Virus record (IMG/VR): IMGVR_UViG_643348551_000007
Origin: a virus
Lineage: Duplodnaviria; Heunggongvirae; Uroviricota; Caudoviricetes
Direction: 5' to 3' (one strand)
DNA: 35,597 bases
The notes beneath the pieces are model-generated. The model saw only the letters and a list, made by a program, of their open reading frames with translations, was not told the DNA's origin and ran no database searches. Shown here in pieces: positions 7,548 through 34,804 of the stretch. The position numbers were made by a program, and so were the translations under genes. Each line of letters opens with the position of its first letter. The first letter of the stretch is position 1.

Positions 7548-7681
7548 TGGATGGGTAAAAATTAATAATAAGTATAAGCAATGTCGACAAACCAAGACAC
7601 AACAAGTATTCAACACAATTAATCATGCACGTGCAAATAGCAATAACATTAACACATTATTTATATAAAAAAAGCGATCTG

Positions 7682-7738
7682 ATATTATTTCGGTTGTGGG
7701 CTTGGTATTTTCAAACCCACAACAATAATATTATTTCG
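7682..7738. terminator. Intergenic hairpin flanked by an 11-bp direct repeat; candidate bidirectional terminator between convergent A and cargo operon
   Basis: Stem GTTGTGGG (7693-7700) / CCCACAAC (7716-7723) with 15-nt loop; ATATTATTTCG occurs at 7682-7692 and again at 7728-7738; AT-rich intergenic 7548-7757. Confidence 0.4.
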
Positions 7739-7757
7739 ATATATTAAACATAGACAA

Positions 7758-8549: not shown

Positions 8550-8877
8550 TTCGATGTAATCCTCTTCTCACAGCCCTATCCAGCTCAGAAAGCATTCCTT
8601 CTTTATAATTCACTCCATCTAAAGATGTTCTGCTATAAAATTCATTCGGAGATGAAAAAAGAGGCAATATATTCTCTAGCATACCCAAAAAGTATGAGCT
8701 TGACACAACCACACCATTCGGAATTGATAGAAAAATCCTATCATTGTTATCAAAAGTAAAGCGATCTATGCCAAAGAAACTATATGCCTTGCGACCATTA
8801 TCACGCCCAGCAAATAATTTCTTGCCGCCATCTTTAACTAATTTATTGAAATCTATATAAATATTTGCCATTTTCAT
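8533..8877 (-). CDS. Small STAS-like (DUF4325-like) protein, second gene of the cargo operon
   Basis: 114 aa; segment FLSIPNGVVVSSSYFLGMLENIL resembles the DUF4325/STAS-like signature (hydrophobic-x-SSSF-x-D/E-L), a family typically encoded next to GHKL ATPases; starts 11 bp after the ATPase stop. Confidence 0.6.
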   Translation of the reverse strand: MKMANIYIDFNKLVKDGGKKLFAGRDNGRKAYSFFGIDRFTFDNNDRIFLSIPNGVVVSSSYFLGMLENILPLFSSPNEFYSRTSLDGVNYKEGMLSELDRAVRRGLHRNVPFF

Positions 8878-8888
8878 TTACCTATTCC

Positions 8889-10813: not shown

Positions 10814-11860
10814 TCAGGATGTGGGCTGGGTGTCTAACAGTGCGTAAGGGTTAAAGCGGATCACCTCTTCGCCAAGCCAGTCATTGATGTGCTTCATGGC
10901 CTCCATGACGGGCATCAGCTCGTTAATTGCGTAAACCCGCGCGGCCTTCTCCACATCACCAAACGCACTTTTTTCGCCCGGCATTGCCCCCATCAGTTGC
11001 GGCGGAACGCGGTGCGCAGCCAGCACATCATCACGGGATGCCGCCTTAACATTCATGAACTCATCCTTTGCGGTGATCTGCTGGAACGGCAAAATTTGCA
11101 CCCCCTCTTTGCCCCCGTTGGGCGCATGAATGAGCACGTTTTTAAACGCACCACCACCACGTGCCCCCTGTAGCGTTTCTTTCAGGGAGTCCATGCTTTC
11201 GCGGTTTACCTGCGCTGCACCGATGTAGATGATGCACCCGGCGTGGGATCCGTTGTCGTAATACAGTTTTCTGAACATGTCCGCCGAATGAGACAGGCTG
11301 GCCGAGAGTAATGCGCCAAGATATTCCGGCATGCCGTAGATTTCCTGGTTAATATCCGGATTCATCAGGTGGCACACTTTGCCAGGGCGAAACTGGAACG
11401 CGTCCTTGCCATCCTGCACATACCACCATGATTCAAGATCGCTTCCGCGTCGCATGTATTTCGCCAGGGCGTGCCGTAATTTAAGCGGTTCACCGAGCAT
11501 ATTGCTTCGAAGCTCAAGGAATGCGTTACCGAACACAAACCAGTCCAGCGCCAGCGCCGAGAAATCCTGCCGGGAAAGCAGCGGGTGCGGAATATAGCAA
11601 CCGAGCAATACATTGCGCTTAAAGTAAAGCGCAGACTGATGCCAGGACGTTTGCCGGGCAGCTCTTGCCAGACCGTACCAGTCCACCGGGGTTTCATACC
11701 ACCGCCCGTTATCAGCACAGTACATATTGTCCAGCAGGTCATGCCCGGTCAGGCGATAAGGACCATCAAATGTGAATGCACTGAGCGATGATTCTTTCCT
11801 GAGCGCATCAGCGAGATCAATGCGTGAACTCATGCGCACTTTTTTATTTTTTCTGCTCAT
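10814..11860 (-). CDS. Q: Portal protein
   Basis: ORF track; 348 aa (P2 Q is 344 aa); leftward gene pair with terminase next to cos, as in P2. Confidence 0.9.
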   Translation of the reverse strand: MSRKNKKVRMSSRIDLADALRKESSLSAFTFDGPYRLTGHDLLDNMYCADNGRWYETPVDWYGLARAARQTSWHQSALYFKRNVLLGCYIPHPLLSRQDFSALALDWFVFGNAFLELRSNMLGEPLKLRHALAKYMRRGSDLESWWYVQDGKDAFQFRPGKVCHLMNPDINQEIYGMPEYLGALLSASLSHSADMFRKLYYDNGSHAGCIIYIGAAQVNRESMDSLKETLQGARGGGAFKNVLIHAPNGGKEGVQILPFQQITAKDEFMNVKAASRDDVLAAHRVPPQLMGAMPGEKSAFGDVEKAARVYAINELMPVMEAMKHINDWLGEEVIRFNPYALLDTQPTS

Positions 11861-20600: not shown

Positions 20601-21497
20601 ATGCCCGCCGTTGACCTTTCACAGTTACCGGACCCCGCCATCATCGCGGAGCCTGACTTTGAGGCAATTCTGGCTGACACAAAGGCCATGATGATTGCGG
20701 CTTATCCCGCCGAACAGCGTGAAGCCGTTTCCGCCGCGCTGGAGCTGGAATCGGAACCCCTGAACGTTATCGCTCAAACCATGTCGTTTCGTGAAATGCT
20801 GTTACGCCAGCGGGTTAACGAGGGGGCACGCGCCTGCATGTTAAGCCACAGCGCCGGGACAGACCTGGACAACCTCGCGGGCAATATGAACACAAAGCGC
20901 CTGACCATCACTCCGGCAACGGATACCACCGACGCAGTGATGGAAAGTGACACCTCGCTGAGACTGCGGGCGCAGCGGGCGTACGATGGCCTGAGTGTTG
21001 CTGGCCCGTCAGGTGCATACGAGTATTTTGCCCGCAGCGCCAGCGGTCTGGTGCGTGATGCGCGGGCTATCAGTCCGTCTCCGGCAAATGTGACGGTTTC
21101 CATCCTGTCCACTGAAGGCGACGGCACAGCAACGGAGGCGTTGCTTAATACCGTTCGCGCCGTTCTGAATGCAGAGGATACCCGCCCGGTGGCCGACCGC
21201 CTTACTGTACAGAGCGCCAGAATCGTGACATGGCGGCTGAATGCAAAACTGTACTTTTACCCCGGCCCGGAATCCGAACCTATTCTGGCGGCGGCTGAAT
21301 CGTCGTTCAGGAAGTGGCTGGCTGAGCAGGGGCTTATCGGTCAGGACGTGGCGTTGTCCGCCATTGCTGCCGCACTGCATGTGCACGGTGTGCAACGCGT
21401 GGAGATAATCGAACCCACACAGAATATGGCCATCAGCGACATACAGGCGGCGCGCTGTGAGTCGTTCACCATCAGCGAAGGTGGGCGCAATGAGTAA
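20601..21497 (+). CDS. J: Baseplate assembly protein
   Basis: ORF track; 298 aa (P2 J about 302 aa). Confidence 0.88.
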   Translation: MPAVDLSQLPDPAIIAEPDFEAILADTKAMMIAAYPAEQREAVSAALELESEPLNVIAQTMSFREMLLRQRVNEGARACMLSHSAGTDLDNLAGNMNTKRLTITPATDTTDAVMESDTSLRLRAQRAYDGLSVAGPSGAYEYFARSASGLVRDARAISPSPANVTVSILSTEGDGTATEALLNTVRAVLNAEDTRPVADRLTVQSARIVTWRLNAKLYFYPGPESEPILAAAESSFRKWLAEQGLIGQDVALSAIAAALHVHGVQRVEIIEPTQNMAISDIQAARCESFTISEGGRNE

Positions 21498-22022: not shown

Positions 22023-24008
22023 ATGAGTACCACAACACGAAAATTTAAAACCGTTATCACCGATACAGGTGCCAAAAAATTAGCTCAGGCAGCCGCGCCA
22101 GATGGTAAGCCTGTCCGCCTGACTCATATGGCCGTGGGCGACGGTGGCGGCACGTTGCCCACACCAGACAGTAAGCAGACCCGTCTGGTGCATGAGGTGT
22201 GGCGACACACTGTTAATCGCGTCATCCTGGACGCAACACATCAGAACCGCATTATTGCGGAGCTGGTTATTCCTCCTGAAACGGGCGGATTCTGGATCCG
22301 GGAAATTGGTGTATTTGATGAGCACGGCGATTTAATCGCGGTGGGCAATACTGCCGAAAGTTACAAACCAACCGTTGCCGAAGGGTCCGGACGTGCACAA
22401 ACATTTCGCACCATTCTGACCGTATCCAGCACTGCCACCGTGGCGCTTACCGTGGATAACACCATGGTGATGGCCACAGTGGATTACGTGGATGACAAAC
22501 TGAAAGAGCATGAACAGTCACGACGTCACCCGGACGCCTCGCTGACCGCAAAAGGCTTTGTTCAACTCAGTAGCGCCACTAACAGCGTGTCTGAAACGCA
22601 GGCTGCAACGCCGAAAGCGGTTAAGGCCGCCTATGACCTTGCTAACGGGAAATATACCGCACAGGACGCCACTATAGCGCGAAAAGGCCTTGTTCAGCTC
22701 AGTAGCGCCACCAACAGCGATTCTGAAACGCTGGCGGCAACACCAAAGGCGGTAAAGGCAGCATATGACCTTGCTAACGGGAAATATACCGCACAGGACG
22801 CTACCACAGCGCGAAAAGGTCTTGTCCAGCTCAGTAGTGCCACCAACAGCACGTCTGAAACATTGGCCGCGACATCGAAAGCGGTTAAGGCGGTAATGGA
22901 TGAAACAAATAAGAAAGCCCCATTAAACAGCCCGACGCTGACCGGAACGCCAACAACACCAACTGCGCGACAGGGAACGAATAATACCCAAATCGCAAGC
23001 ACGGCTTTCGTTATGGCTGCGATTGCCGCCCTTGTAGATTCGTCACCTGATGCACTGAACACGCTGAACGAGCTGGCTGCGGCGTTGGGCAACGACCCGA
23101 ATTTTGCGACCACCATGACTAACGCGCTTGCGGGTAAGCAACCGAAAGATGCCACCCTGACGGCGCTGGCCGGGCTTGCTACTGCGGCAGACAGGTTTCC
23201 GTATTTTACGGGGAATGATGTCGCCAGCCTGGCAACTCTGACAAAAGTCGGGCGGGATATTCTTGCGAAATCGACCGTTGCCGCCGTTATCGAATACCTC
23301 GGTTTACGAGAACTCGGCACAAGCGGGGAGAAAATACCGTTACTCAGTACAGCGAATACCTGGACCAATCGACAAACATTCAGCGGTGGCCTTTCTGGGG
23401 AACTGTCCGGCAATGCCGCTACTGCAACAAAGCTGAAAACAGCACGAAAAATTGCTGGAGTTGGTTTTGATGGTTCTAGCGATATTTCAATTAGTGCCAA
23501 AAATGTCAATGCATTTGCACTCCGACAAACAGGTAATACTGTTAATGGTGATACATCCGTTGGATGGAATTGGGATAGTGGTGCATATAACGCCATGATT
23601 GGTGGTGCATCTGCATTAATTCTTCACTTTAATATAAATGCTGGTAGCTGTCCTGCCGTACAATTCCGTGTGAATTATAAAAATGGTGGCATTTCCTACA
23701 GGTCGGCTCGTGATGGTTATGGGTTTGAATTAGGTTGGTCAGATTTCTATACCACGACACGAAAACCTTCAGCGGGAGATGTTGGTGCATATACGCGGGC
23801 AGAATGTAACTCAAGGTTTATTACAGGTATTCGCCTTGGCGGTCTGTCATCTGTTCAGACATGGAATGGTCCCGGCTGGTCTGACAGGTCAGGTTATGTC
23901 GTTACGGGTTCAGTTAACGGAAACCGTGATGAATTAATTGATACAACACAGGCAAGGCCAATTCAGTATTGCATTAATGGGACGTGGTATAACGCGGGGA
24001 GTATTTAA
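22023..24008 (+). CDS. H: Tail fibre protein, constant N-terminal part fused to the currently expressed variable C-terminus
   Basis: 661 aa; tandem repeats in the shaft; C-terminus ...IQYCINGTWYNAGSI; followed by a tail-fibre assembly gene. Confidence 0.9.
   Translation: MSTTTRKFKTVITDTGAKKLAQAAAPDGKPVRLTHMAVGDGGGTLPTPDSKQTRLVHEVWRHTVNRVILDATHQNRIIAELVIPPETGGFWIREIGVFDEHGDLIAVGNTAESYKPTVAEGSGRAQTFRTILTVSSTATVALTVDNTMVMATVDYVDDKLKEHEQSRRHPDASLTAKGFVQLSSATNSVSETQAATPKAVKAAYDLANGKYTAQDATIARKGLVQLSSATNSDSETLAATPKAVKAAYDLANGKYTAQDATTARKGLVQLSSATNSTSETLAATSKAVKAVMDETNKKAPLNSPTLTGTPTTPTARQGTNNTQIASTAFVMAAIAALVDSSPDALNTLNELAAALGNDPNFATTMTNALAGKQPKDATLTALAGLATAADRFPYFTGNDVASLATLTKVGRDILAKSTVAAVIEYLGLRELGTSGEKIPLLSTANTWTNRQTFSGGLSGELSGNAATATKLKTARKIAGVGFDGSSDISISAKNVNAFALRQTGNTVNGDTSVGWNWDSGAYNAMIGGASALILHFNINAGSCPAVQFRVNYKNGGISYRSARDGYGFELGWSDFYTTTRKPSAGDVGAYTRAECNSRFITGIRLGGLSSVQTWNGPGWSDRSGYVVTGSVNGNRDELIDTTQARPIQYCINGTWYNAGSI
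22551..22946 (+). repeat. Three in-frame tandem repeats of 132 bp (44 aa) inside H
   Basis: KGFVQLSSATNS.SET.AATPKAVKAAYDLANGKYTAQDAT.AR repeated starting at about 22551, 22683 and 22815; third copy diverges at its end. Confidence 0.75.
23287..23313 (+). other. gix-like recombination (crossover) site, left
   Basis: TTATCGAATACCTCGGTTTACGAGAAC; shares the ACCTCGGTTTAC core with the right site and with Gin gix sites. Confidence 0.7.
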
Positions 24009-24010
24009 CG

Positions 24011-24544
24011 ATGATGCACTTAAAAAACATTACTGCTGGCAACCCTAAAACAAAAGAGCAATACCAGCTAACAAAGCAATTTAACATCAAATGGCTTTAT
24101 TCAGATGATGGAAAAAACTGGTATGAGGAACAAAAGAATTTCCAGCCAGACACTTTGAAAATGGTCTATGACCATAACGGCGTTATTATTTGTATTGAAA
24201 AGGATGGTTCAGCAATTAATCCGGAAGGCGCAAGCGTCGTTGAATTACCTGATATTACAGCAAATCGCCGGGCTGATATTTCGGGGAAATGGTTGTTCAA
24301 AGATGGCGTAGTGATAAAGCGAACTTATACCGAGGAAGAGCAGAGGCAACAAGCGGAAAATGAAAAGCAAAGCCTGTTGCAACTTGTCAGGGATAAAACC
24401 CAGCTATGGGACTCACAGCTACGGCTGGGCATCATTTCCGACGAGAATAAACAAAAATTAACCGAGTGGATGCTCTATGCGCAGAAAGTCGAATCTACAG
24501 ACACCTCCAGCCTGCCAGTAACGTTTCCCGAACAACCAGAATGA
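24011..24544 (+). CDS. G: Tail fibre assembly protein (currently expressed copy)
   Basis: 177 aa; conserved N-terminus [22 protein letters not shown] shared with the inverted copy. Confidence 0.85.
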   Translation: MMHLKNITAGNPKTKEQYQLTKQFNIKWLYSDDGKNWYEEQKNFQPDTLKMVYDHNGVIICIEKDGSAINPEGASVVELPDITANRRADISGKWLFKDGVVIKRTYTEEEQRQQAENEKQSLLQLVRDKTQLWDSQLRLGIISDENKQKLTEWMLYAQKVESTDTSSLPVTFPEQPE

Positions 24545-24547
24545 GAG

Positions 24548-24575
24548 AAGGCCCGATATTGGGCCTTAATTTTTA
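24548..24575. terminator. Bidirectional rho-independent terminator between the convergent tail-fibre assembly genes
   Basis: AAGGCCC-gatatt-GGGCCTT hairpin followed by AATTTTT. Confidence 0.65.
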
Positions 24576-25100
24576 CTCAGGCTTTTGTGGCCATTCTGGA
24601 TTTGCTGTATCCACACGGCTGACCAGAACGCTGTAGCGTTCCCATGACTCCAGTCGTGTGCGTTCCTCATCCGTCGCCATATTCAGCCTGACAGCGCGTT
24701 CCAGTGGCTGAATAACGCTTTCAGCTTCAGAAAGCAACGCGACCTTTTGTGATTCGGCCTGTTGTTGCTGTTCGTCTGCTGTATAAATCCGCTTAACCAC
24801 AGTTCCGTCCTTAAACATCCACTTCCCTGAATCATCGGCACGACGATTGGCTGTTATATCTGGAATCTCAACGACACTAAAGCCTTCGGGATTAAGCGTT
24901 GAGGCATCTTTGGTTATGGCAACAATAATATTATTTTCGTCGTATACAATCTTTATGGTGTCGTCCTGAAAGTTATTTACTTCCTCATACCAGTTTTTAC
25001 CGTCTTCGGACCATAACCAGATAACATCAAAATTCTTTGTTAGCTGATATTGTTCTTTTGTTTTTGGACTTCCGGACTTAATATTTTTTAAATGCTGCAT
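24573..25100 (-). CDS. Tail fibre assembly protein (alternative copy)
   Basis: 175 aa; N-terminus [22 protein letters not shown] paralogous to 24011..24544. Confidence 0.85.
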
Positions 25101-25103
25101 AAT

Positions 25104-25976
25104 TTACACCTGTGCGACGTTATACCATGTGCCATTGATGTATTTTTGTATTGGTCTGAAGATGGCTTCATCATCGCCATCTACTTCACCAATGATTCTT
25201 AATCCGGTAATTGCGTGTCCGGCTTTTTCATAACGACCACCACGCGCCATCAATTGAACAACACGCGTACCCAGGCGAACATCTTTTACATAGCGTGAAT
25301 CAAAATTCCCCCAGTTGCTGGGCTGTATCTGACCGTTAACAGAAAATATTACCGAGTTATCTGTATTTCGCTGGCTATAGAAATGCCATCCTGCCTCATC
25401 GCCTAACTCTGCAACTACTGGACGGGTTGAAGCACCCCATAAATTAAACGTTGCATTCTTTGTGGAGGTGTTGGAGCTGGATAGCGAGAACTTTTTACTA
25501 TCACCTGCCTGAATGTTTTTAAAAGCAATAGCAACTCCATTCTGAAAGCGGAATACTCGCTGACTATTAGCGTAAACATCCAGAATACCATCACCATTCT
25601 GTTTGAATCCGGTGTCATTATCACCAAGAACAATAGAGCTACCACCTAACGCATTCGTCGTACCAACTCCAAGACTGCCATTAATGACGGCATTTACCAG
25701 AATATTTAGTGCATCCCATTTCAGCGTCATCAGGTCTTTTGTTGTGGTGCTCTGGCGGCTTCTCCATTTGAAATATTCATTGCCGTTGTCGCCTGTTTCA
25801 AACCACATGTATGAATCAGTGTCACCATCAGCATCATTTTTAAATCCAATCTTCGCCCAGTCAGTATTTCGAATCCAGGCAAGGATTGAGTCATTTTCAA
25901 AAGTAAGCCTACCGGACAAAGTATCGCCATTTTTTTGCACGGCGTTACCAGCCCTGTTTACCGTTTCCTGTAAACC
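25104..25976 (-). CDS. Alternative tail-fibre C-terminal cassette (promoterless and startless until inversion)
   Basis: Open frame runs from the right gix site; on inversion it would read ...EYLGLQETVNRAGNAVQKNGD... in frame with H; C-terminus IQKYINGTWYNVAQV parallels that of H. Confidence 0.75.
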   Translation of the reverse strand, partial: GLQETVNRAGNAVQKNGDTLSGRLTFENDSILAWIRNTDWAKIGFKNDADGDTDSYMWFETGDNGNEYFKWRSRQSTTTKDLMTLKWDALNILVNAVINGSLGVGTTNALGGSSIVLGDNDTGFKQNGDGILDVYANSQRVFRFQNGVAIAFKNIQAGDSKKFSLSSSNTSTKNATFNLWGASTRPVVAELGDEAGWHFYSQRNTDNSVIFSVNGQIQPSNWGNFDSRYVKDVRLGTRVVQLMARGGRYEKAGHAITGLRIIGEVDGDDEAIFRPIQKYINGTWYNVAQV

Positions 25977-25990
25977 GAGGTTTTAAATAA
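25963..25990 (-). other. gix-like recombination (crossover) site, right
   Basis: Reverse complement reads TTATTTAAAACCTCGGTTTACAGGAAAC, near-identical to the Gin gix consensus as I recall it. Confidence 0.75.
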
Positions 25991-26026
25991 TGGCCGTTTC
26001 TGGCCTGCATGGCATGATTTGCGCTT

Positions 26027-26644
26027 TTGGACGGGAGATTCAGTGTGCTGATTGGCTATGTAAGGGTATCAACAAATGACCAGAATACAGACCTGCAACG
26101 AAACGCTCTTGTTTGTGCAGGATGTGAACAAATATTTGAAGATAAATTAAGCGGGACAAAGACAGACCGACCGGGATTAAAACGCGCTTTAAAGCGCCTT
26201 CAAAAAGGTGACACGCTGGTTGTCTGGAAACTGGATCGCCTCGGGCGAAGCATGAAACATCTGATTTCTCTCGTCGGGGAACTACGGGAGCGAGGGATTA
26301 ATTTTCGCAGTCTGACCGACAGCATAGACACATCTTCTCCAATGGGGCGTTTTTTCTTCCACGTGATGGGTGCCCTGGCTGAAATGGAACGTGAATTAAT
26401 TGTTGAACGTACACTGGCCGGGCTGGCGGCAGCGCGCGCAAGGGGGCGCACAGGCGGACGTCGACCGAAGCTGACAAAAGAACAGCATGAGCAAATAGCA
26501 AGGCTAATCAAAAACGGGCACGACAGAAAACAACTGGCAATAATTTACGGCATTGGCACATCGACGATTTATCGTTATCACCCTGTAGGCGATATACAGA
26601 CTGAAGAAACAACCGGGCAGACTCAGGAAAATGAAAACCGCTAA
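26027..26644 (+). CDS. Serine recombinase, Gin/Pin/Hin-family DNA invertase
   Basis: VLIGYVRVSTNDQNTDLQRNALVCAGCEQIFEDKLSG... is near-identical over the catalytic domain to Mu Gin as I recall it; likely true start is the GTG at 26045. Confidence 0.95.
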   Translation: MDGRFSVLIGYVRVSTNDQNTDLQRNALVCAGCEQIFEDKLSGTKTDRPGLKRALKRLQKGDTLVVWKLDRLGRSMKHLISLVGELRERGINFRSLTDSIDTSSPMGRFFFHVMGALAEMERELIVERTLAGLAAARARGRTGGRRPKLTKEQHEQIARLIKNGHDRKQLAIIYGIGTSTIYRYHPVGDIQTEETTGQTQENENR

Positions 26645-26672: not shown

Positions 26673-27167
26673 TCAGAACAGCCCTTTAACTGAACTGGCC
26701 GCGCTGTTAAGAGATGATGTCACCTTATCTTTGAAGCCGGACAGCATATCACTGAACGATGAGGATTGCAGGCGCTCCCGCAAATCCTCATCACAGCGTT
26801 CAAGGGTCAGTGAAAATTCTATCTTTTTCGCCTTACCGTAGCGATCAAACTCGGAACGGGTCGTATTCGTTCCGGTCAGGACATACATGCCGTAAATCTG
26901 CCCGACGCCATCAATCAAAGGCCAGGGTCGTCCTGTATACGCCTGCGTGGTCAGCAGCGACAGCGACACTTCGCCACCTGTAATTTCAGGATAAAGCACA
27001 CCAGAAAGAACGATGCGATCATCACCTGCACCGATATACTGCCAGCTTGCTGAACGGTTAACGCGTTCATTTTTCACATGCCGCCAGCTTTTGTTTTGCT
27101 GTAACTGCTGATGCGGCAGCGTGCGCAGCTCAAAAACAAACATGCCGTAGATCATCATCATGGCCAT
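26673..27167 (-). CDS. U: Tail protein U
   Basis: 164 aa; ...FVFELRTLPHQQLQQNKSWRH... resembles the P2 gpU N-terminus; directly downstream of T. Confidence 0.82.
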   Translation of the reverse strand: MAMMMIYGMFVFELRTLPHQQLQQNKSWRHVKNERVNRSASWQYIGAGDDRIVLSGVLYPEITGGEVSLSLLTTQAYTGRPWPLIDGVGQIYGMYVLTGTNTTRSEFDRYGKAKKIEFSLTLERCDEDLRERLQSSSFSDMLSGFKDKVTSSLNSAASSVKGLF

Positions 27168-27173
27168 GACTCC

Positions 27174-30017
27174 TCAATCTTTATCGTAAAAACTGCCACG
27201 CCCGGCACGGGCGCGCCGTTCCATTTCTGCCCTGACCATTTCACCGACCAGTTTCGCCAGTTCGCGGGGATTCTGCGTAACAACGTTATGCAGATGAACA
27301 TGAATTTCACCACCAAATCCGGAGGCAACAGGCTCCCGGTTACGGGAAGTTGCAGGAACTGATGCCACTGGCGATCGTATGGCCTCCGCCACCGGGCGGG
27401 AGCTGGCCGCAACAACAGGGACCAGCGCCGGAGGCAGCGGAGCCGGAACCACGGGTGTGATATTAATTGCGGGGTCAGGCTTACTGACCTGCGCAATCTT
27501 CCGCTCCTGCCACTCCCCACGAACAGCAAGTGCGCGGGGCAGGTTCTTAAAGACAATATCGCCGGGGCCAATGCGTTTTTTCGTCTCATCAACCAGCTTA
27601 CCTGTGTTATCAGCAATTTTGCTGAGTCTGCGTAGCGTACCGGTATTGCTGTCTGTGAGCGGTTTGTTGTCTTTGGGCTTATCACCTCCGGTGCCATTGC
27701 CATTTTCCACAGGCTTCGGCGGATTGATTTTCGCCAGGTCCCCCTGAAGCAAGGCAACCTTGTCCTGAAGAATGGCCGCACGCTGTGCGTCTTCGATTTT
27801 CTTGCGCGCCCTTTCCGCTTCATCCGGAAGCACACCGAGCTTTTCAAGTATCCACGCCAGCGTATCCAGCAACATTTTTGCAGGTGTCAGAACAAGTTGT
27901 AACGCACCGCCAAGAACGTTACCGAATATCTCGCCAGCACTGGTACATTTATCCAGCGTTTCCTTGCTGGACTCCATCGGTGACAGCAGCGATTTAAACC
28001 AGTTAAACACCTGGCTGATCCCGCTTCCGATTGCGTCAAAAACAGGACCAAACCGTTCAAAGGTTTCGCGCAACGGGGTCAGCCTTTCCATAATCCCGCT
28101 GAACACCCCGGCAAAAAATGCCCTGATGGGATCCCAGTATTTCCAGATAAGAACGGCAGCTCCGGCAAGCGCAGCCACGATAAGACCGACCGGACTGAAC
28201 AACGCCCCGATAGCGCCCCCCAGTAACGAAACGGAACCCGTCACCATTCCCCATAGTGCTGGCAGGAGTCTGACAGCATTCATTGAACCGGTCAGGAGGG
28301 AAAAGCCAAGACGCAGTTTTGCCAGCGGGCCAGCAAGCACACCAATAGCCAGCGACAACGAGCCAACCGTTGCAGTCATTGCCAGCAACGCACCGCCTGC
28401 TATCAGTAGCTGGCGCGTCAGTACCGGATGGGCCTGCGCCAGCGAGGTGATTTTTTCAAGCACCCGCGTGAGCCACTGCGTGACAGAACGCAGCGGACCG
28501 TCAACCAGATCACTGATGCGAATACGAAGACCTTCCCATGCGCTGTCGAGATTTTTCAGGTCCCCATCAAGATTATCGGCCATTACTTTTGCAACGCGAT
28601 CGGCCTCTCCCCTTGCCCCCTGCAATTCTCTGGTCAGTTTTTGCAGCTCTCCTGAACCAGCCGCCGCAACAAGCGTCTGCAAACCAACGAACGCCTCTTC
28701 TCCGGCGATGTCCTTGAAGAAGGAGACCTGGTCCACCTGTCCGTATTTTTGTGTCGCCTTATAGAGATCAAGCAGCACATCCTCCATCGGGCGCATTTTG
28801 CCTCTGGCGTCAGCAACTGACACCCCCAGCTCTTTCAGCGCATCAGCCGCAGCTTTTGGCGGTGATGCAAGGCGGGACAGACTTGCGCGCATGGCCGTAC
28901 CAGCATCGCTTCCACGAAGACCATTATTGGCAAGCATCCCGGCCATGGCTGCCGCTTCTTCAAGACTGATACCAAGTTTTGCGGCAACCGGACCGGTATA
29001 CTTCATGGTTTCGCCCAGCGCGCGTAAATCAGTATTGGTCCGGGTGAATGCCGCTGTCAGCGTATCGCCAACCCGGTCCATTTGATCGGCTGTCAGTTTG
29101 AACTGTGTGAGGATATTGGAGCCTATATCCGCCGTCTCGCCGAGTTCGACGCCACCTGCCAGCGCCATATTAAGAACACCGGGCAATGCGGCCTGAATGG
29201 CCTGCGGAGTAAAACCAGCCATTGCCAGAAAGCTCTGCCCACTGGCGGCATCACTCGCAGTAAACTGTGTTTCAGAACCAAGTTTTAACGCCTGCTCACG
29301 CAGCGCCTTAAACTGCGGGCTTTTTTTGTCGATTCGCGTCAGTGCCTGAACGCGGGACATCTCTTTGCCGAACCCGATCGCAGGCTGCAAAAAACGCCCG
29401 GCAGCATAGCCGCCAGCCGCTGCAGCACCAATTGCCAGCGCACCACCTGTTTTCAGTTTTCCCGCGGTTTCCTGCGCGCGCGAATACCGCTCACGCGCCC
29501 GCGTTACACGCGCAAGCGCCTGCCGTTCGCGTTCAAGCTGGTTGTTGTACTGTTCGGTGCGTCTGATGGCCTGCTGGATGGTGTTATCGCTGCCTGTCAG
29601 GGAAATGCCGTGGCGTTTCAGCTCTCCGCCAAGTTCCCGCATTTTCTGAATTTCCCGTGTGCGCGATTCATTCAGGCGTTCAAGCCGGGTGCTTAACTGC
29701 TGCATCAGCTTTTGTTGTTTTTCGCTGAGCACTGTACCCGTGCGTTGTAACTGATTAAGGGCGTTAAGCTGGCGTCGTGCTTTCACGATACCCGCATCCG
29801 CTTTACTGACAGCGTCGCGGGCGCGCTCAAATGAACGCGCCTGACGCTCGAGATTTTTGATCGCCCCCTGCGTTCGCTGGATGGAGTCACCAAACTGCCC
29901 CATCAGGCGGCGGGCGTTTTCGGCAGGCCGGGTCAGCCTGTCAACGGCGCTGAAAGCGACCCGGATATCAAGAGTCTTCATTGTCTGCATTCCCGCTGCG
30001 AAGTGCCGCCCGCTCAC
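27174..30017 (-). CDS. T: Tail tape measure protein
   Basis: 947 aa; N-terminal coiled coil, central hydrophobic Gly/Ala-rich segments, downstream of E/E'; true start may be an internal Met near 29980-29990. Confidence 0.9.
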   Translation of the reverse strand: MSGRHFAAGMQTMKTLDIRVAFSAVDRLTRPAENARRLMGQFGDSIQRTQGAIKNLERQARSFERARDAVSKADAGIVKARRQLNALNQLQRTGTVLSEKQQKLMQQLSTRLERLNESRTREIQKMRELGGELKRHGISLTGSDNTIQQAIRRTEQYNNQLERERQALARVTRARERYSRAQETAGKLKTGGALAIGAAAAGGYAAGRFLQPAIGFGKEMSRVQALTRIDKKSPQFKALREQALKLGSETQFTASDAASGQSFLAMAGFTPQAIQAALPGVLNMALAGGVELGETADIGSNILTQFKLTADQMDRVGDTLTAAFTRTNTDLRALGETMKYTGPVAAKLGISLEEAAAMAGMLANNGLRGSDAGTAMRASLSRLASPPKAAADALKELGVSVADARGKMRPMEDVLLDLYKATQKYGQVDQVSFFKDIAGEEAFVGLQTLVAAAGSGELQKLTRELQGARGEADRVAKVMADNLDGDLKNLDSAWEGLRIRISDLVDGPLRSVTQWLTRVLEKITSLAQAHPVLTRQLLIAGGALLAMTATVGSLSLAIGVLAGPLAKLRLGFSLLTGSMNAVRLLPALWGMVTGSVSLLGGAIGALFSPVGLIVAALAGAAVLIWKYWDPIRAFFAGVFSGIMERLTPLRETFERFGPVFDAIGSGISQVFNWFKSLLSPMESSKETLDKCTSAGEIFGNVLGGALQLVLTPAKMLLDTLAWILEKLGVLPDEAERARKKIEDAQRAAILQDKVALLQGDLAKINPPKPVENGNGTGGDKPKDNKPLTDSNTGTLRRLSKIADNTGKLVDETKKRIGPGDIVFKNLPRALAVRGEWQERKIAQVSKPDPAINITPVVPAPLPPALVPVVAASSRPVAEAIRSPVASVPATSRNREPVASGFGGEIHVHLHNVVTQNPRELAKLVGEMVRAEMERRARAGRGSFYDKD

Positions 30018-30204
30018 GCCAGCTAACCACTTCGCCGGGCGTCATCATGAAGATTTCGGCGGGCGACCAGTTAAAAATGGCGGCAATATCCGCCACAAAG
30101 TCTTCTATGTGCTCAAAGCACACAACCGTGATCAGGCTTCCGTCGCCTGTTCGTTCTTCCCGCCAGAGTCCGCACCGCTCAAAAAATTTACGGCAACCAC
30201 ACAT
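29968..30204 (-). CDS. E': E' extension frame (expressed only as the E+E' frameshift product)
   Basis: Track ORF 29968..30204 overlaps the 3' end of E in the -1 frame and continues to the tape measure start, exactly the gpE/gpE+E' arrangement. Confidence 0.7.
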   Translation of the reverse strand: MCGCRKFFERCGLWREERTGDGSLITVVCFEHIEDFVADIAAIFNWSPAEIFMMTPGEVVSWRERAALRSGNADNEDS

Positions 30205-30506
30205 AACTGAATAAAGTCACGGGATGCCATTTTTTTGATCGTCACTTCATCCAGTCGCGGTGATGTCACGCGTGACAGCAGCGTAAACATGGATTCCGCT
30301 TTCAGATTCAGCACATCAGACAGCGACAAATCTCGCAGAGATCCAGCCTGCTCAATAGCCCCGGTGATCTCCACATACGTGATTTTTTCGCCACCACGCT
30401 CAATTGGCCGGGAAAGTTTTACACCACGTTCGACAGCCATATCCTCACCTGCCGTCACATCATCCGCCACGGTGTTATTCCGGGTTTCAGTATCGATGTC
30501 TTTCAT
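30132..30506 (-). CDS. E: Tail assembly chaperone
   Basis: 124 aa between tail tube and tape measure; ends shortly after the slippery site. Confidence 0.82.
   Translation of the reverse strand: MKDIDTETRNNTVADDVTAGEDMAVERGVKLSRPIERGGEKITYVEITGAIEQAGSLRDLSLSDVLNLKAESMFTLLSRVTSPRLDEVTIKKMASRDFIQLCVVAVNFLSGADSGGKNEQATEA
30180..30186 (-). promoter_or_regulatory. Programmed -1 ribosomal frameshift slippery heptamer (TTTTTTG)
   Basis: Minus strand reads GTA AAT TTT TTG AGC near the end of E; slipping one base back here joins the E frame to the E' frame. Confidence 0.7.
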
Positions 30507-30561
30507 CAGTTGTCTCCTTTTCAGTCAGAGGCGACGCACTGCGCCGCCTGCATATTACTTA

Positions 30562-31074
30562 TCAGCCAAGCCCAAGCGCGGAACGGATACGGTCAGGCAC
30601 AATGTCCTTGCCGTCCTTCCGGTAGATGTGGTTCAACAGGTCGATTTCCCACAGCGGGCGATCGTTAACGCTCAGCTTGTAGTAGGTGTTTTTGACAGCG
30701 TAAGTGTGTGATGTGGCTTCGCCCTGTTTGGCTTCCCCCATATCAATTTCCGTCACACGTCCGCGCATCTCGATTTCATACAGATCGCTTTCTGCATCGG
30801 TGTAGTATTCACCCGCAAAACGCAGCAGCGTGCCGTCAATCGTGCCGCCATATTTAAGGAACAGCGCACGAACAGCTCCCCCCATAACAAAACTCGCATC
30901 AAGCGCGGAGTCGTCCAGACCGAGATCAATACTTACCGCCCCCATCATGCCACCACCACGATAGCTGTCGGTTTTGCGCGTCAGTTTGGGCGGCGTGACG
31001 GATGTCACTTTACCCACTTCGTTTTCACCATCCACAAACAACGTAAAAAAGCGAAGATGTTTTGGTACAGCCAT
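30562..31074 (-). CDS. FII: Tail tube protein
   Basis: 170 aa (P2 FII 172 aa); directly downstream of sheath. Confidence 0.9.
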   Translation of the reverse strand: MAVPKHLRFFTLFVDGENEVGKVTSVTPPKLTRKTDSYRGGGMMGAVSIDLGLDDSALDASFVMGGAVRALFLKYGGTIDGTLLRFAGEYYTDAESDLYEIEMRGRVTEIDMGEAKQGEATSHTYAVKNTYYKLSVNDRPLWEIDLLNHIYRKDGKDIVPDRIRSALGLG

Positions 31075-32258
31075 CAGGCACCTCCCAGCACCGCAAATGC
31101 GGGACCAAAGAATTCATCAGTAAACGTCTGGTAAAGCTCCATGTCTTCCAGTGGCGGAACGGGCGTATATTTGTAGCGAATACGCACACGTCCCTGACGT
31201 AAATCCGTGGTGCCGTTATCCACTACGTCATACCAGCACTCCGCACCAATCAGTTTCCCGGCAGTAACCAGCGAATCCAGTTTTGCCCTGATGGCACTGA
31301 TAACATCCTTCACGTTCGCAGGCGTCAGTGGACTGTCGATGGTTTCAAACTGCGCTTCCGCAATTGAATCAGCCAGCACCTGTGCGGTTCGGGTATACAC
31401 CTCAAAGATGTAGGCGTTCGTTTCCGGTGTGCGGTTGCCCCAGAAGCGGAACCCGTTGCGACGAATAATGGTCGTAATTTCTTTGTTATTGAGGCTGTTG
31501 GCATCACTGTCTTCGGCCTGCAACGACCAGAACACATGCCTGGACATTCCCAGCACATTTTTAACCGGAACGTTGGACAGCGATTTGTGCCAGCCCTGCT
31601 CATGGTCAATGTACGCACGAAGGCCGCACGCATAAGCAGGCGCGGGGAACGTTTCGTTTTTGCCACTTTTCGGGTTGTAGGCGATGAAGTCAGGCCATAA
31701 GAGCATCACCTCACGTTCGTTGAATTTCTGGCGGTAGGTAATCGCCTCAGCCATCGTGTTACAACCATGACATGTGGCATACACAAACGCGCGCAGTTTA
31801 CCCGCAATCACGCACAGGGATTTTGTTACCGCCTCCGTGTCCAGCTCCGGCGCGGCCAGAATACGCGGACGGTATCCGATGCTTTCATCCTGCTCTGCAA
31901 CAAGCAGCGCATACATCCCCGTATAGCTGCCGTCATCCTCAGAACCACCGATAACCAGTTGATCCTGCGTCTTTCCATCTTCTTCTTTGTGTTCAGCCAC
32001 GCGAACGACGATCACCTTTGTGCTCACCTGGTCTGCGATGGCCTTAAGCGCACGATAAAGCGTCCCCGTTGTTCCGCATTTTCCCAGCACGTCATTGACG
32101 CGGGTCAGCAGTGTGGGCTTGTTCAGCGGGAACAGCTTCGCGTCCGCATCATCCGCCGTTGCCACGATACCGATAACGCTGGAATCAACATCGTTAATCG
32201 CTGTTACCAGGTCGGTATTTTCCGTAACACGGGCACCATGAAAACGAGTTTCACTCAT
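31074..32258 (-). CDS. FI: Tail sheath protein
   Basis: 394 aa (P2 FI 396 aa). Confidence 0.93.
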   Translation of the reverse strand: MSETRFHGARVTENTDLVTAINDVDSSVIGIVATADDADAKLFPLNKPTLLTRVNDVLGKCGTTGTLYRALKAIADQVSTKVIVVRVAEHKEEDGKTQDQLVIGGSEDDGSYTGMYALLVAEQDESIGYRPRILAAPELDTEAVTKSLCVIAGKLRAFVYATCHGCNTMAEAITYRQKFNEREVMLLWPDFIAYNPKSGKNETFPAPAYACGLRAYIDHEQGWHKSLSNVPVKNVLGMSRHVFWSLQAEDSDANSLNNKEITTIIRRNGFRFWGNRTPETNAYIFEVYTRTAQVLADSIAEAQFETIDSPLTPANVKDVISAIRAKLDSLVTAGKLIGAECWYDVVDNGTTDLRQGRVRIRYKYTPVPPLEDMELYQTFTDEFFGPAFAVLGGA

Positions 32259-32415
32259 AGCTTCAGCCCCTTGTATCCGTTAAATGATTCAGCAACAATC
32301 ATCACCTACCACGCGCGTAATCTCACCCCTGCGCCGTTCTCCCGCCACGGCGACAACAAAAAGCAGTAACCCCTTCCGCACGCACATGCGACCATGCCGC
32401 ACAGGGAGGGAACAG
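32259..32415. promoter_or_regulatory. Divergent promoter region between FI (minus) and D (plus)
   Basis: 157-bp noncoding gap between divergent starts; contains dyad TGATT-N7-AATCA and a TGT...ACA element at about 32272-32297. Confidence 0.35.
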
Positions 32416-33513
32416 ATGACCGACACCACCATGCAATTGCTCAGTCAGGGCACAGACCCCGTGAAAATGCCGGATTTTGATATTCTCGCGGAGGGTAAAA
32501 CGCTGTCAGGCGTGGCAGAGCGCCTGATGAGCCTGTCACTGACCGACAACCGGGGATTTGAGGCGGACCAGCTCACCATCACGCTGGATGATGCGGATGG
32601 TCAGTTGCAGCTACCGCCACGGGGCGCGCGCCTGACGGTTCTCATTGGCTGGAAAGGAGAACCGCTGACAGAAAAAGGCACTTACATTGTTGATGAAATC
32701 GCTCACGAAGGACCGCCGGACAGGCTGACGGTTTCAGCCAGAAGCGCAGATTTTCGGGATGAATTTAACGTTAAACGTGAGGTGTCCTGGCATGATGTGA
32801 CCGTTGAGCGCGTGGTATCCGCCATCGCTCATCGGTACGGTCTGAAACCACAAATCAGCGAAATGCTGATGGATATTGAAATCGACCACGCCGACCAGAC
32901 CGAAGAAAGCGACATGTCCTTCCTTACGCGCATGGCGGAAATGCTGGGCGCAATCACTACGGTAAAAAGCGGTAATCTGTTATTCATCATGCCAGGCGGT
33001 GGCGTGAACGCGCAGGGCCAGCCGTTGCCCTCGTTCGCCATCACACGCAGCAGCGGCGATCGCCATCAGTTCCGCATTGCTGACCGAGAGGCGTATACGG
33101 GGGTACGCGCTTACTGGCTTGATCTTAATTACGGGAAAAAGAAAAAAGTCAGCGTGAAACGCCGTAAACCGAAAATGGAGAAAAGCAGTAGCCGTGAAGG
33201 CGACTATATGGAAGGTGCGGAAGGCAACGTGTTTGTGTTACGCAAGACTTATCAGAACGAACAGGCAGCAAGACGCGCTGCGGCGGCAAAGTGGCAGCAG
33301 CTACAACGCGGAGCCGCATCATTCTCCATCACACTGGCACGTGGACGCGCAGAACTCTACCCCGAAATGCATGGCACGGTAACAGGATTTAAAAGCGAGA
33401 TTGATAATCAGGACTGGATTATTGCAAAAGCCGAGCACACCATTGATAACAGCGGTTTTACCACGCAGCTTGAACTTGAAACAAAAATCCCTGAATGGAT
33501 TGCGCAGACCTAA
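32416..33513 (+). CDS. D: Tail protein D (late control gene D family)
   Basis: LSLTDNRGFEADQL, RSADFR, SWHD, ITRSDGDRH-like, EGDYMEGAEGNVF and SGFTTQLELE blocks match P2 gpD as I recall it; start set at ATG 32416 with GGGAGGG Shine-Dalgarno. Confidence 0.9.
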   Translation: MTDTTMQLLSQGTDPVKMPDFDILAEGKTLSGVAERLMSLSLTDNRGFEADQLTITLDDADGQLQLPPRGARLTVLIGWKGEPLTEKGTYIVDEIAHEGPPDRLTVSARSADFRDEFNVKREVSWHDVTVERVVSAIAHRYGLKPQISEMLMDIEIDHADQTEESDMSFLTRMAEMLGAITTVKSGNLLFIMPGGGVNAQGQPLPSFAITRSSGDRHQFRIADREAYTGVRAYWLDLNYGKKKKVSVKRRKPKMEKSSSREGDYMEGAEGNVFVLRKTYQNEQAARRAAAAKWQQLQRGAASFSITLARGRAELYPEMHGTVTGFKSEIDNQDWIIAKAEHTIDNSGFTTQLELETKIPEWIAQT

Positions 33514-33643: not shown

Positions 33644-34804
33644 TTAATCAAGTTTTTGCTGATGATACCGATACAGCATCATTCTAAGTTTTAGCAAGGT
33701 TGTACTATCATTATCTGCAGAGCAAAAATTATACCAACCTTCAGTATATTTATTTAAAGTATCAAAGTAATAATCCTTCAATGGATCATCCCTATCTGAG
33801 TGGAGACAAGAAAACATCTTCTGAAGAATATAATTTAATTCACCTGTAGGAAGCCTCGAAATAATCACATCACAAGTAGTTGTTAAATCTTCAATATTCA
33901 TTTTCTGAAGATTATTTCTAATCTCTAAAACGATCGGATAGAGTTTACTCAAAAACTCATTTACTTCATCTTGAAGATGCTTCTCTTTAACACAACCATC
34001 AAACAAATGAATTAACTCTTCCAATTGCATTCGGTAATAATCATTATTACCTCGTATAGCGACTTCTGAAAGAAGCAGCCTCAACTCATCATAAATGTTA
34101 TCGGTGGATGATATAACTTGCGCGGACAAAACATCGTAATGGTTGTTACGAATTACCACTATAGAGTCCATTAGTTTTTCTAGATATTTATACCTACTTT
34201 CAACATATGAGATAAGCTCGTTAAATTTAATACCGAAAATAACATCATCCACACCGGGTTTATTATTATAAAGACTTATAGTAAAATCATTATTATTAAG
34301 TGCATAAAAATGAGGCCAACTCGCAAACAATCTCTCCCCGTGGTTATTTTTAAGATTCGTAGGGTGAGCACCAAAAATAGCGCGAACACTCTTAAAATAA
34401 GAGTCATCATCCTCATGCGAAAGATAATGTATTTTATCCTTAAAAATATCAACAGAGCCTTTAAAGGGCCATTTCATAAAATTATTGTCACTTTCAATAA
34501 TACGATGGAGTTGCCGCACCGCTTCCACTATTATATCGATTGATGATATAATAGTATAAATCTGCATAGCTTTAATATCAATGTCTTCAGATATTTCAGG
34601 GATGTTCATAAGATAGCGTACAGAAACAGTAATCCAATCCATGCATGAACAAATAGGGCTGAACTGATTTTTACCATTTCTGTTTATGAAGTAACTATAA
34701 ACAAAATCTCTTTCATTAACTACATCGCGAAAATCCGTTATTAAAGTATCATTAATAGTTATACCAAAATTTGTCTTAGTTATCTTCATGGTGACCATTT
34801 TCAC
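33644..34804 (-). CDS. AT-rich cargo gene, hypothetical 386-aa cytoplasmic protein (possible Abi/HEPN-like)
   Basis: ORF track; strongly AT-rich, opposite orientation to flanking D and ogr; contains an R-x5-H stretch (RAIFGAH); no TM segments. Confidence 0.7.
   Translation of the reverse strand: MKMVTMKITKTNFGITINDTLITDFRDVVNERDFVYSYFINRNGKNQFSPICSCMDWITVSVRYLMNIPEISEDIDIKAMQIYTIISSIDIIVEAVRQLHRIIESDNNFMKWPFKGSVDIFKDKIHYLSHEDDDSYFKSVRAIFGAHPTNLKNNHGERLFASWPHFYALNNNDFTISLYNNKPGVDDVIFGIKFNELISYVESRYKYLEKLMDSIVVIRNNHYDVLSAQVISSTDNIYDELRLLLSEVAIRGNNDYYRMQLEELIHLFDGCVKEKHLQDEVNEFLSKLYPIVLEIRNNLQKMNIEDLTTTCDVIISRLPTGELNYILQKMFSCLHSDRDDPLKDYYFDTLNKYTEGWYNFCSADNDSTTLLKLRMMLYRYHQQKLD

Follow-up and report, generated by a model that had tools for sequence, protein, structure and literature searches.

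The window, as we call the whole stretch of 35,597 nucleotides that was analysed, very probably carries a working two-state DNA inversion switch of the site-specific Gin/Cin type, located inside a P88-like (Xuanwuvirus, P2-family) prophage. The switch is real and already known: an intact version of the textbook system of phages Mu and P1. All mechanistic elements named for a Gin-type switch are present and intact in the window, and no sequence evidence against a switch was found at this locus. Its anatomy, reading frames and homologies are plain, and both orientations occur in nature, with the breakpoint inside the core of the recombination sites. The sites and the segment between them are as follows.

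23287-23312, plus strand: left recombination site, gixL-like, TTATCGAATACC-TC-GGTTTACGAGAA from outside to inside, within the fibre coding sequence
25965-25990, minus strand: right recombination site, gixR-like, reverse complement TTATTTAAAACC-TC-GGTTTACAGGAA from outside to inside
23301-25976, no strand: invertible segment, spanning 2676 bp from one crossover dinucleotide to the other; its homologues are the G segment of Mu and the C segment of P1

The two 26-bp gix-like sites are inverted, with imperfect 12-bp half-sites and the same asymmetric 2-bp core (TC in both when read from outside), as is typical of Din-family sites. They are equal at 21 of 26 positions, and a repeat search recovered them as an inverted repeat (I2) with arms at 23283-23312 and 25965-25994 (30 nt, 80% complementary). 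The perfect 12-nt core ACCTCGGTTTAC is present in exactly two copies in the 35.6 kb, one per strand, also when one mismatch is tolerated; 0.07 copies are expected by chance, and two matches were obtained in none of 100 shuffles. These are the only two gix-like sites in the window. A hand count on the printed sequences gives 22 of 26 positions shared between the left site and Mu gixL, and 24 of 26 between the right site and Mu gixR; from the right site up to the start of the invertase, the alignment with Mu is close. Both site sequences quoted in a preliminary description of this DNA were found where it had placed them, with the perfect core only there, and its estimate of a segment of about 2.7 kb is refined to 2676 bp between the crossover points. 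The segment has a G+C content of 0.42-0.49, below that of the phage core. Positions 23283-25994 match phage P884B11 at 99.3% and Shae_phiSM at 97.2%. Identity to the G segment of Mu is 90.3% over 23510-25139, and to the C segment of P1 it is 88.7% over 23510-25310.

The segment contains two convergent cassettes, each consisting of a tail-fibre C-terminus and its own assembly chaperone, and the constant part of the fibre adjoins it on the left.

22023-24008, plus strand: fibre gene, an ORF with Pfam Phage_tail_fib and Phage_fiber_2 matches
22023-23300, plus strand: constant fibre N-terminal part (Sc), with the Phage_tail_fib N-terminal domain and three Phage_fiber_2 repeats
23301-24008, plus strand: variable fibre C-terminus Sv in the now expressed orientation, Mu S'/P1 Sv' type, giving a 661-aa fibre
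24011-24544, plus strand: tail-fibre assembly chaperone in the now expressed orientation, Mu U'/P1 U' type, Pfam Caudo_TAP
24548-24567, plus strand: G+C-rich hairpin between the convergent chaperone genes, AAGGCCCGATATTGGGCCTT then AATTTTT
24573-25100, minus strand: silent chaperone gene, Mu U/P1 U type, Pfam Caudo_TAP
25104-25976 (ORF to 25979), minus strand: silent fibre C-terminus Sv', without its own start codon at the junction

Sc sits beyond the invertible segment, start codon included, and is therefore fused to whichever C-terminal cassette faces it. The C-terminal 165 aa of Sv are 88.5% identical to Mu S' and 85.5% identical to P1 Sv', and the adjacent gene encodes a chaperone that shares 96.6% identity with Mu U' and 94.4% with P1 U'. 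For the silent chaperone, which would be expressed once the segment is inverted, the identities are 96.6% (Mu U) and 95.4% (P1 U). The two cassettes are orthologous to Mu S'/U' and S/U. As the preliminary description had it, two tail-fibre C-termini and two paralogous assembly genes lie in opposite orientation; the ORFs and the Caudo_TAP matches bear this out, and the two chaperones are just 55.9% identical to each other. The hairpin between them looks like a candidate plus-strand terminator; no T-run was found on its minus strand.

Inversion of the segment in silico joins Sc to Sv' in frame (...AAVIEYLGL/QETVNRAGNAVQK...), as proposed earlier for the minus-strand cassette, and yields an uninterrupted ORF of 716 aa in place of 661 aa. 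This 716-aa form is the annotated fibre in NU14. Sv' shares 47% identity with Mu S and 54% with P1 S and is a mosaic: both ends are Mu S/P1 S-like and the middle is divergent, with no blastn match to Mu or P1 for positions ~25311-25676. The two fibre tips are ~32% identical across 117 aa, and a comparison with known fibre tips, suggested beforehand as a check, paired each with a different solved Mu structure: Sv with PDB 8JU3 (Mu S/S' construct; E = 7e-97) and Sv' with 5YVQ (Mu S; E = 8.7e-75, best across residues 1-138). The arrangement is that of Mu G/P1 C-type cassettes, in which the constant part lies outside and two convergent, promoterless sets of C-terminus and Caudo_TAP gene, both in frame, lie inside.

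Just outside the segment is the invertase gene, where a Gin/Pin-like invertase had already been pointed out.

26045-26644, plus strand: Gin-family serine DNA invertase, 199 aa, GTG start with GGAG upstream; Pfam Resolvase (1.5e-50) and HTH_7 (4.4e-13)
26063-26134, plus strand: presumed recombinational enhancer (sis element, putative Fis-binding), inside the 5' end of the invertase gene

Translation most likely starts at the GTG at 26045 (199 aa, as in Mu gin) rather than at the TTG at 26027. The protein is full length and shares 85.6% identity with Mu Gin and 71.5% with Cin. Position 39 is the sole difference from Gin within residues 1-113, the Ser9 nucleophile is kept, and the alignment with Gin structures 4M6F and 3UJ3 (E = 3e-100) contains MLIGYVRVSTNDQ with S9. 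Compared with Mu gin in blocks of 60 nt, the gene is 87-100% identical over its first ~360 nt and ~50-58% identical beyond. By this comparison the invertase is chimeric, a Gin-like catalytic domain being joined to a divergent C-terminal DNA-binding domain. The latter is ~55% identical to that of Gin by hand count, and residues 139-185 match the Hin domain (1HCR; E = 5e-12); its recognition-helix stretch, compared by hand, is presumably nearer to that of Hin. The build of the protein is that of Din-family invertases, which are ~190 aa long with a Ser9 catalytic N-terminal domain and a C-terminal helix-turn-helix.

Din-family systems also have a cis enhancer in the 5' part of the invertase gene, and at the sequence level the window has its putative counterpart there. 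Positions 26063-26134 are the equivalent of cin nt 19-90, annotated in the P1 record as 'enhancer of Cin-mediated C-segment inversion', and are identical to the Mu gin stretch at 72 of 72 positions and to P1 at 55 of 72. Because the left site departs from gixL at 4 of 26 positions and the DNA-binding domain shares so little with Gin, the case for site recognition is built on an inversion seen between two E. coli strains, UTI89 and NU14, rather than on Mu biochemistry; the left site in both strains has the same sequence as in the window.

Both orientations, which the preliminary description had proposed to look for, were found in other genomes. Among complete E. coli genomes, 326 have the native junction and 355 the flipped one, a split of ~50:50, the matches reaching 99.6% identity over 800 nt. 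Between UTI89 and NU14, the only difference across 10.8 kb is an exact inversion (a 2662-nt reverse complement with 0 mismatches) bounded by the shared core. The breakpoint lies inside the site core, and Sc is the same in both strains as far as the crossover. Both orientations with breakpoints in the site core, as expected of the Din family, were thus seen in genomes other than that of the window's strain. UTI89 is 98.8% identical to the window over the 5.1-kb module. Its 0.9-Mb prophage inversion has been validated by PCR in cultures (Russell et al. 2019; PMC6458436), and the primers of that study map to 21475-21494 (plus), 24411-24430 (minus) and 28281-28300 (minus) of the window, that is, one per flank and one within the segment. 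Continuous flipping has also been reported for P2-like prophages of EPEC (Goldberg et al. 2014; PMC4272514). The intact sequence, together with relatives at 98-99% identity, leads us to infer that the switch would be active in the window's strain as well. A single orientation together with a damaged invertase, or a crossover out of phase, had been named beforehand as arguing against a switch, and neither was found.

The host element is a P88-like P2-family prophage, whose best phage match is Xuanwuvirus (Peduoviridae). Pfam matches comprise Phage_GPA, Phage_portal, Baseplate_J, Tail_P2_I, Phage_P2_GpU, Phage_tube, Phage_sheath and Phage_GPD, and there is a Cox-like PHROG match. The P2 gene set (integrase, Cox-like, gpA, portal/terminase/capsid, V-W-J-I, H, G, FI, FII, E, T, U and D) is represented, and the prophage appears to be complete: integrase and repressor genes are there, as are gpA and the genes for head, lysis and tail. 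The gene order departs from that of P2, in which H-G-(Z/fun)-FI-FII-E-T-U-D lie on one strand: the FI-FII-E-T-U block (26673-32258) is on the strand opposite to the P2 arrangement and converges on the invertase, and D is on the plus strand. Phage 503458 has the same gene order as the window. With its FI-U block reversed, the element is P88-like and not P2-syntenic here, and the 'P2 Z/fun position' given in the preliminary description is therefore just loosely right: the G-equivalent gene does precede the module, but the tail block beyond the module lies on the opposite strand.

By analogy with the known systems, invertase dimers would bind both inverted 26-bp sites, and a synaptic tetramer would form with host Fis at the enhancer that the invertase gene carries in its 5' end. 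Ser9 would cut both sites at the central TC/GA dinucleotide, and one pair of subunits would rotate by 180 degrees before religation, leaving 23301-25976 inverted. Dependence on Fis and negative supercoiling and strand exchange by subunit rotation are known from Gin/Hin biochemistry (PMC3575834); for the window, we infer the need for Fis, the chemistry of cleavage and the effect on host range from the Mu, P1 and Hin paradigms. The fibre promoter, start codon and first 426 codons all lie outside the segment, and so inversion would swap only the C-terminal receptor-binding part and the co-transcribed chaperone. The present orientation would give the 661-aa fibre with a Mu S'/U'-type tip, and the flipped orientation the 716-aa fibre with a Mu S/P1 S-like tip and divergent middle. 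Through this swap, the virions released by a population of lysogens would be of two kinds, differing in host range. A more far-reaching joint reading, which we regard as very unlikely, is that the silent-cassette tip, whose stretch at ~25311-25676 has no nucleotide match in Mu or P1, may have a specificity of its own, that the flip would alter the susceptibility of the lysogen to other phages (in analogy to PinQ/StfE2), and that the chimeric invertase would act in trans on other Din-type segments.

As for explanations that compete with a working switch, the locus could be a frozen relic whose architecture is kept and whose flipping has been lost, either because the invertase is not expressed or through a subtle inactivating substitution, with the fibre fixed at 661 aa. 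The single assembled window shows one orientation, a simple sigma-70 scan upstream of the invertase gave nothing convincing as a promoter, and the four UTI89 assemblies in the collection all share one orientation. Nevertheless, the invertase ORF is intact and retains Ser9, with 99.5% identity to its counterpart in Shae_phiSM, an active Citrobacter phage, the sites and the enhancer are intact, the closely similar UTI89 locus flips in culture, and the genomes are evenly divided by orientation, which makes a relic very unlikely. Less probable still is that the switch is real but mainly benefits the lysogen, its fibre and chaperone products blocking the adsorption of other phages or arming a tailocin-like particle. 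PinQ-driven inversion of the e14 P segment gives StfE2, which blocks T2 adsorption (PMC12529663), and benefits to the host have been speculated on (Goldberg et al. 2014; PMC4272514); against this, the prophage looks complete and the fibre gene lies within a late structural operon. RecA-dependent homologous recombination between inverted cassette homologies, in place of invertase action, is extremely improbable as the source of the inversions between genomes, for although a 40-nt repeat (I1; 23955-23994 and 25118-25157, 78% complementary) and the paralogous, inverted chaperone genes could offer substrates, the UTI89/NU14 breakpoints fall exactly within the gix-like core and not at the longer internal homologies, the perfect core match of 12 nt is too short for efficient RecA exchange, and exchange at the internal repeats would give no in-frame fibre fusion.

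The two-state switch of the window shares the layout of the Mu G segment/Gin system, with the constant part outside, Sv-U and U'-Sv' convergent inside, the invertase past the right site and, within the 5' end of its gene, the enhancer. The Mu right site and the 5' end of its invertase gene are near-identical or identical to those of the window, as are, to a lesser degree, the chaperones (96.6%), the S' tip (88.5%) and Gin (85.6%). Mu, however, is a transposable phage, whereas the host here is a P2-family myovirus; the constant part of Mu S is unrelated (24% identity), and the Mu segment is ~3 kb long compared with 2.68 kb. Further differences from Mu are the P1-like start of Sv (RELGTSGEK...), the divergent middle of Sv' and the replaced DNA-binding domain of the invertase. 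The C segment/Cin/cix system of P1/P7 works on the same principle. Its chaperones are 94-95% identical to those of the window, the constant fibre parts have Phage_fiber_2-type repeats in common and are 60% identical over ~340 aa, and the enhancer position is annotated within cin. Unlike the window, P1 has a C segment of 4.2 kb with 0.6-kb terminal inverted repeats, and cin flanks it on the opposite side; the core of cix reads CCTTGG instead of CCTCGG, and Cin is just 71.5% identical to the invertase of the window.

The e14 P segment/Pin, Salmonella Hin/hix, Fels-2 Fin, p15B Min and carotovoricin Er systems likewise use Fis-dependent serine invertases of the Din family that act on inverted 26-bp sites, and most of these systems swap tail-fibre C-termini. 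Hin inverts a promoter, whereas the switch described here inverts a coding exon; the p15B Min shufflon has six sites and many isomers compared with two sites in the window; and the carotovoricin Er inversion belongs to a tailocin. The two-state locus of EPEC E2348/69 (Goldberg et al. 2014) is grouped with the invertible tail-fibre segments of P2-like E. coli prophages, of a lineage that may not be that of the window. The 0.9-Mb inversion of UTI89 (Russell et al. 2019) and the P88-like phages P88, P884B11, 503458 and Citrobacter phiSM represent the element family of the window itself, with strain-level sequence differences only.

The tail-fibre inversion switch in the window is a textbook member of the Din family and sits in a known phage lineage; the observation made in the preliminary description is confirmed and its interpretation supported. 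Gene calls and Pfam domains agree with its account of two fibre C-termini and two assembly genes on opposite strands, with an invertase just outside. The locus comprises the following features:

22023-24008, plus strand: tail fibre of 661 aa, with a Phage_tail_fib N-terminal domain and three Phage_fiber_2 repeats
24011-24544, plus strand: Caudo_TAP chaperone (Pfam domain)
24548-24567, plus strand: G+C-rich hairpin
24573-25100, minus strand: second Caudo_TAP chaperone, 55.9% identical to the first
25104-25979, minus strand: promoterless fibre C-terminus (Sv', the silent one)
26045-26644, plus strand: serine recombinase (the invertase), with Resolvase and HTH_7 domains

The recombination sites form an inverted repeat retrieved by a repeat search of the window, with 30-nt arms at 23283-23312 and 25965-25994 that are 80% complementary. 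Both gix-like sequences were located where they had been placed, in inverted orientation:

23287-23312: left (gixL-like) site, read from outside inward as TTATCGAATACC-TC-GGTTTACGAGAA
reverse complement of 25965-25990: right (gixR-like) site, read from outside inward as TTATTTAAAACC-TC-GGTTTACAGGAA

The two sites agree at 21 of 26 positions. Each strand of the 35.6-kb window has exactly one copy of their perfect common core, ACCTCGGTTTAC, and the total stays at two when one mismatch is allowed (chance expectation 0.07; none of 100 shuffles reached two). The crossover dinucleotides lie 2676 bp apart (23301-25976), in line with the segment of about 2.7 kb first proposed. A shufflon-type multi-inversion system was rejected, as no further gix-like sites were found in the window with the 12-nt core at up to one mismatch.

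Inversion of 23301-25976 in silico joined ...AAVIEYLGL to QETVNRAGNAVQK... and yielded an uninterrupted 716-aa fibre. The claim that the minus-strand cassette is in frame across the crossover is therefore correct. A simple promoter scan inside the segment and upstream of the invertase returned fewer promoter-like sites than shuffled sequence, none of them convincing. Within the constant N-terminal part of the fibre gene, the 44-aa Phage_fiber_2 repeats are encoded by three tandem 132-nt repeats (22532-22927), whose later copies show 84% and 64% identity to the first; analogous repeated elements are annotated in P1 S.

The invertase most likely starts at the GTG at 26045, preceded by GGAG as in Mu gin, which gives a protein of 199 aa. 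It shares 85.6% identity with Mu Gin and 71.5% with P1 Cin. Residues 1-113 differ from the Gin crystal-structure sequences (4M6F and 3UJ3; E = 3e-100) solely at position 39, and the alignment retains the catalytic Ser9, whereas the C-terminal DNA-binding domain is far more divergent from Gin. Compared with Mu gin in 60-nt blocks, the gene is 87-100% identical up to about nt 360 and about 50-58% identical thereafter, and is thus chimeric. In a comparison by hand, the recognition helix looks closer to that of Hin. The window aligns closely with Mu gixR-gin over the interval between the right site and the start of the invertase gene. In the P1 record, nt 19-90 of cin are annotated as the enhancer of Cin-mediated inversion; the equivalent stretch of the window (26063-26134) is identical to Mu gin at 72/72 positions and to P1 at 55/72. 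Kahmann et al. 1985 reportedly located the Mu enhancer inside gin.

Both orientations of the switch were retrieved from sequenced genomes. A flipped-junction query, assembled in silico from 400 nt of the constant fibre and 400 nt of reverse-complemented Sv', matched 355 of 5,426 complete E. coli genomes at a coverage of at least 80%, with identities of up to 99.6%; the native junction was present in 326. Both junctions occur in E. coli genomes and the invertase is intact, rather than a single orientation accompanying a disrupted enzyme. The prophage sits at the same position in the chromosomes of uropathogenic strains UTI89 and NU14, flanked in both by the same protein accessions. Over 10.8 kb, these two prophages show no difference outside one 2662-nt stretch, which is the exact reverse complement, with zero mismatches, and is bounded by the shared cores of both sites. 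The UTI89 prophage is 98.8% identical to the window across the 5.1-kb module. Russell et al. 2019 (PMC6458436) found an inversion 'at 0.9 Mb' beside 'phage invertase pin' in UTI89 cultures and confirmed it by PCR. The three primers of that study map to 917318, 921188 and 924124 in UTI89 and to 28281-28300 (minus), 24411-24430 (minus) and 21475-21494 (plus) in the window, one in each flank and one within the segment, with at most one mismatch each. There is thus experimental proof that the orthologous locus flips, and the switch is already known, being documented in a prophage 98.8% identical. Tail-fibre segments of P2-like prophages in EPEC also flip constantly (Goldberg et al. 2014, PMC4272514).

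That the switch is a frozen relic, which no longer flips in the window prophage, is very improbable, as its parts are intact and its orthologue flips. A host-side role, such as the adsorption blocking reported for PinQ/StfE2 (PMC12529663), is improbable and found no support here. RecA-type inversion at longer internal homologies or repeats is excluded, because the UTI89/NU14 breakpoints sit in the gix core.

The site-specific switch has its sites, open frames, intact enzyme and identical enhancer-equivalent sequence in place, together with a natural inversion whose breakpoint lies in the core. By analogy with Gin and Hin biochemistry, invertase dimers would bind the two sites, enhancer-bound Fis would activate the synaptic tetramer, Ser9 would cut the central TC/GA dinucleotide, and 180-degree subunit rotation followed by religation would invert the segment (PMC3575834). 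Fibre transcription and translation begin in the constant part, outside the segment, so that a flip replaces the receptor-binding C-terminus together with the chaperone that belongs to it and leaves the rest of the fibre unchanged. The fibre has 661 aa in the native and 716 aa in the flipped orientation, and the virions are expected to be a mixture of two types that differ in host range. By analogy with Mu, in which G(+) virions form plaques on E. coli K-12 and G(-) virions do so on Citrobacter freundii, Shigella sonnei and Enterobacter, the two virion types here may have corresponding hosts.

Judged from its gene content, the window holds a P2-family prophage that is essentially complete. Genes recognised by Pfam or PHROG:

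1011-2138: integrase
2038-2382: HTH repressor
2443-2721: Cox-like protein
4782-7547: gpA
10814-11860: portal
also baseplate J and I, fibre, gpU, tape measure, tube, sheath and gpD

Other head, lysis and baseplate genes were assigned positionally against annotated phage 503458. The best phage matches were Xuanwuvirus (P88-like): 503458, 520873, P884B11, P88 and Citrobacter phiSM. The proposed placement of the switch at the P2 Z/fun position is only approximate, because, unlike in P2, the FI-FII-E-T-U genes are on the minus strand and run towards the invertase. The sheath-tube-E-tape measure-gpU block (26673-32258, minus strand) is inverted relative to the P2 order, and the start codons of the gpD ORF (32284-33513, plus strand) and of the divergent sheath gene are only 25 nt apart. 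The block inversion is a feature of the lineage, since phage 503458 has the same arrangement.

Two low-GC stretches were also observed. The first (7758-10265, minus strand; GC 0.35 versus 0.53-0.60 in the phage core) is flanked by the gpA replication gene and the portal gene, at the P2 tin/old hotspot for accessory genes, and encodes ORFs with lengths of 263, about 114 and 458 aa. The second (GC 0.34), close to the prophage's right end and just past gpD, holds a 386-aa ORF (33644-34804, minus strand). Searches of these cargo ORFs against Pfam, PADLOC, PHROGs, NCBIfam and PDB sequences gave zero functional matches: the first block matched only PHROGs of unknown function, with nothing in Pfam, PADLOC, NCBIfam or PDB sequences, and the 386-aa ORF matched nothing in Pfam, PADLOC, PHROGs or NCBIfam. 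The first block could be uncharacterised cargo or an anti-phage system.

In RefSeq, the silent fibre exon is called a 'hypothetical protein' in UTI89 (L003, the UTI89 locus, 7204-8040) and an 'incomplete; partial' pseudogene in NU14 (L002, the NU14 locus, 7369-7866). These calls are an annotation artefact of the phase-variable architecture. RefSeq entries labelled 'hypothetical protein' or 'partial phage tail protein' beside the invertase are the silent exon of a phase-variable fibre, and either orientation is therefore expected in prophage assemblies. Orientation differences at this locus between near-clonal genomes should be taken neither as assembly errors nor as phylogenetic signal, and host-range prediction for P88-like phages should weigh both tips. 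Beyond correct annotation, the importance of the switch is small.

Both C-termini matched known fibre tips. The expressed cassette is of the Mu G(-) type: its chaperone is 96.6% identical to Mu U', and the C-terminal 165 aa of Sv, the expressed variable C-terminus, share 88.5% identity with Mu S' and have a match in PDB 8JU3 (E = 7e-97). The silent cassette is of the Mu G(+) type. Its chaperone shares 96.6% identity with Mu U, and Sv' shares 47% with Mu S and 54% with P1 S. In the PDB, Sv' matches 5YVQ (E = 8.7e-75), with the best agreement at residues 1-138. The central stretch of Sv' (about 25311-25676, minus strand) had no blastn match to Mu or P1, with flanks about 88-90% identical, and may be a tip variant of different specificity. 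The same variant is carried by P884B11 (99.3%) and Shae_phiSM (97.2%). The Mu G segment aligns with the window at 90.3% over 23510-25139 and 89.8% over 25677-25990, and the P1 match reaches 25310. At the sequence level, the switch module is closely related to the inversion systems of the Mu G and P1 C segments, both classical cases.
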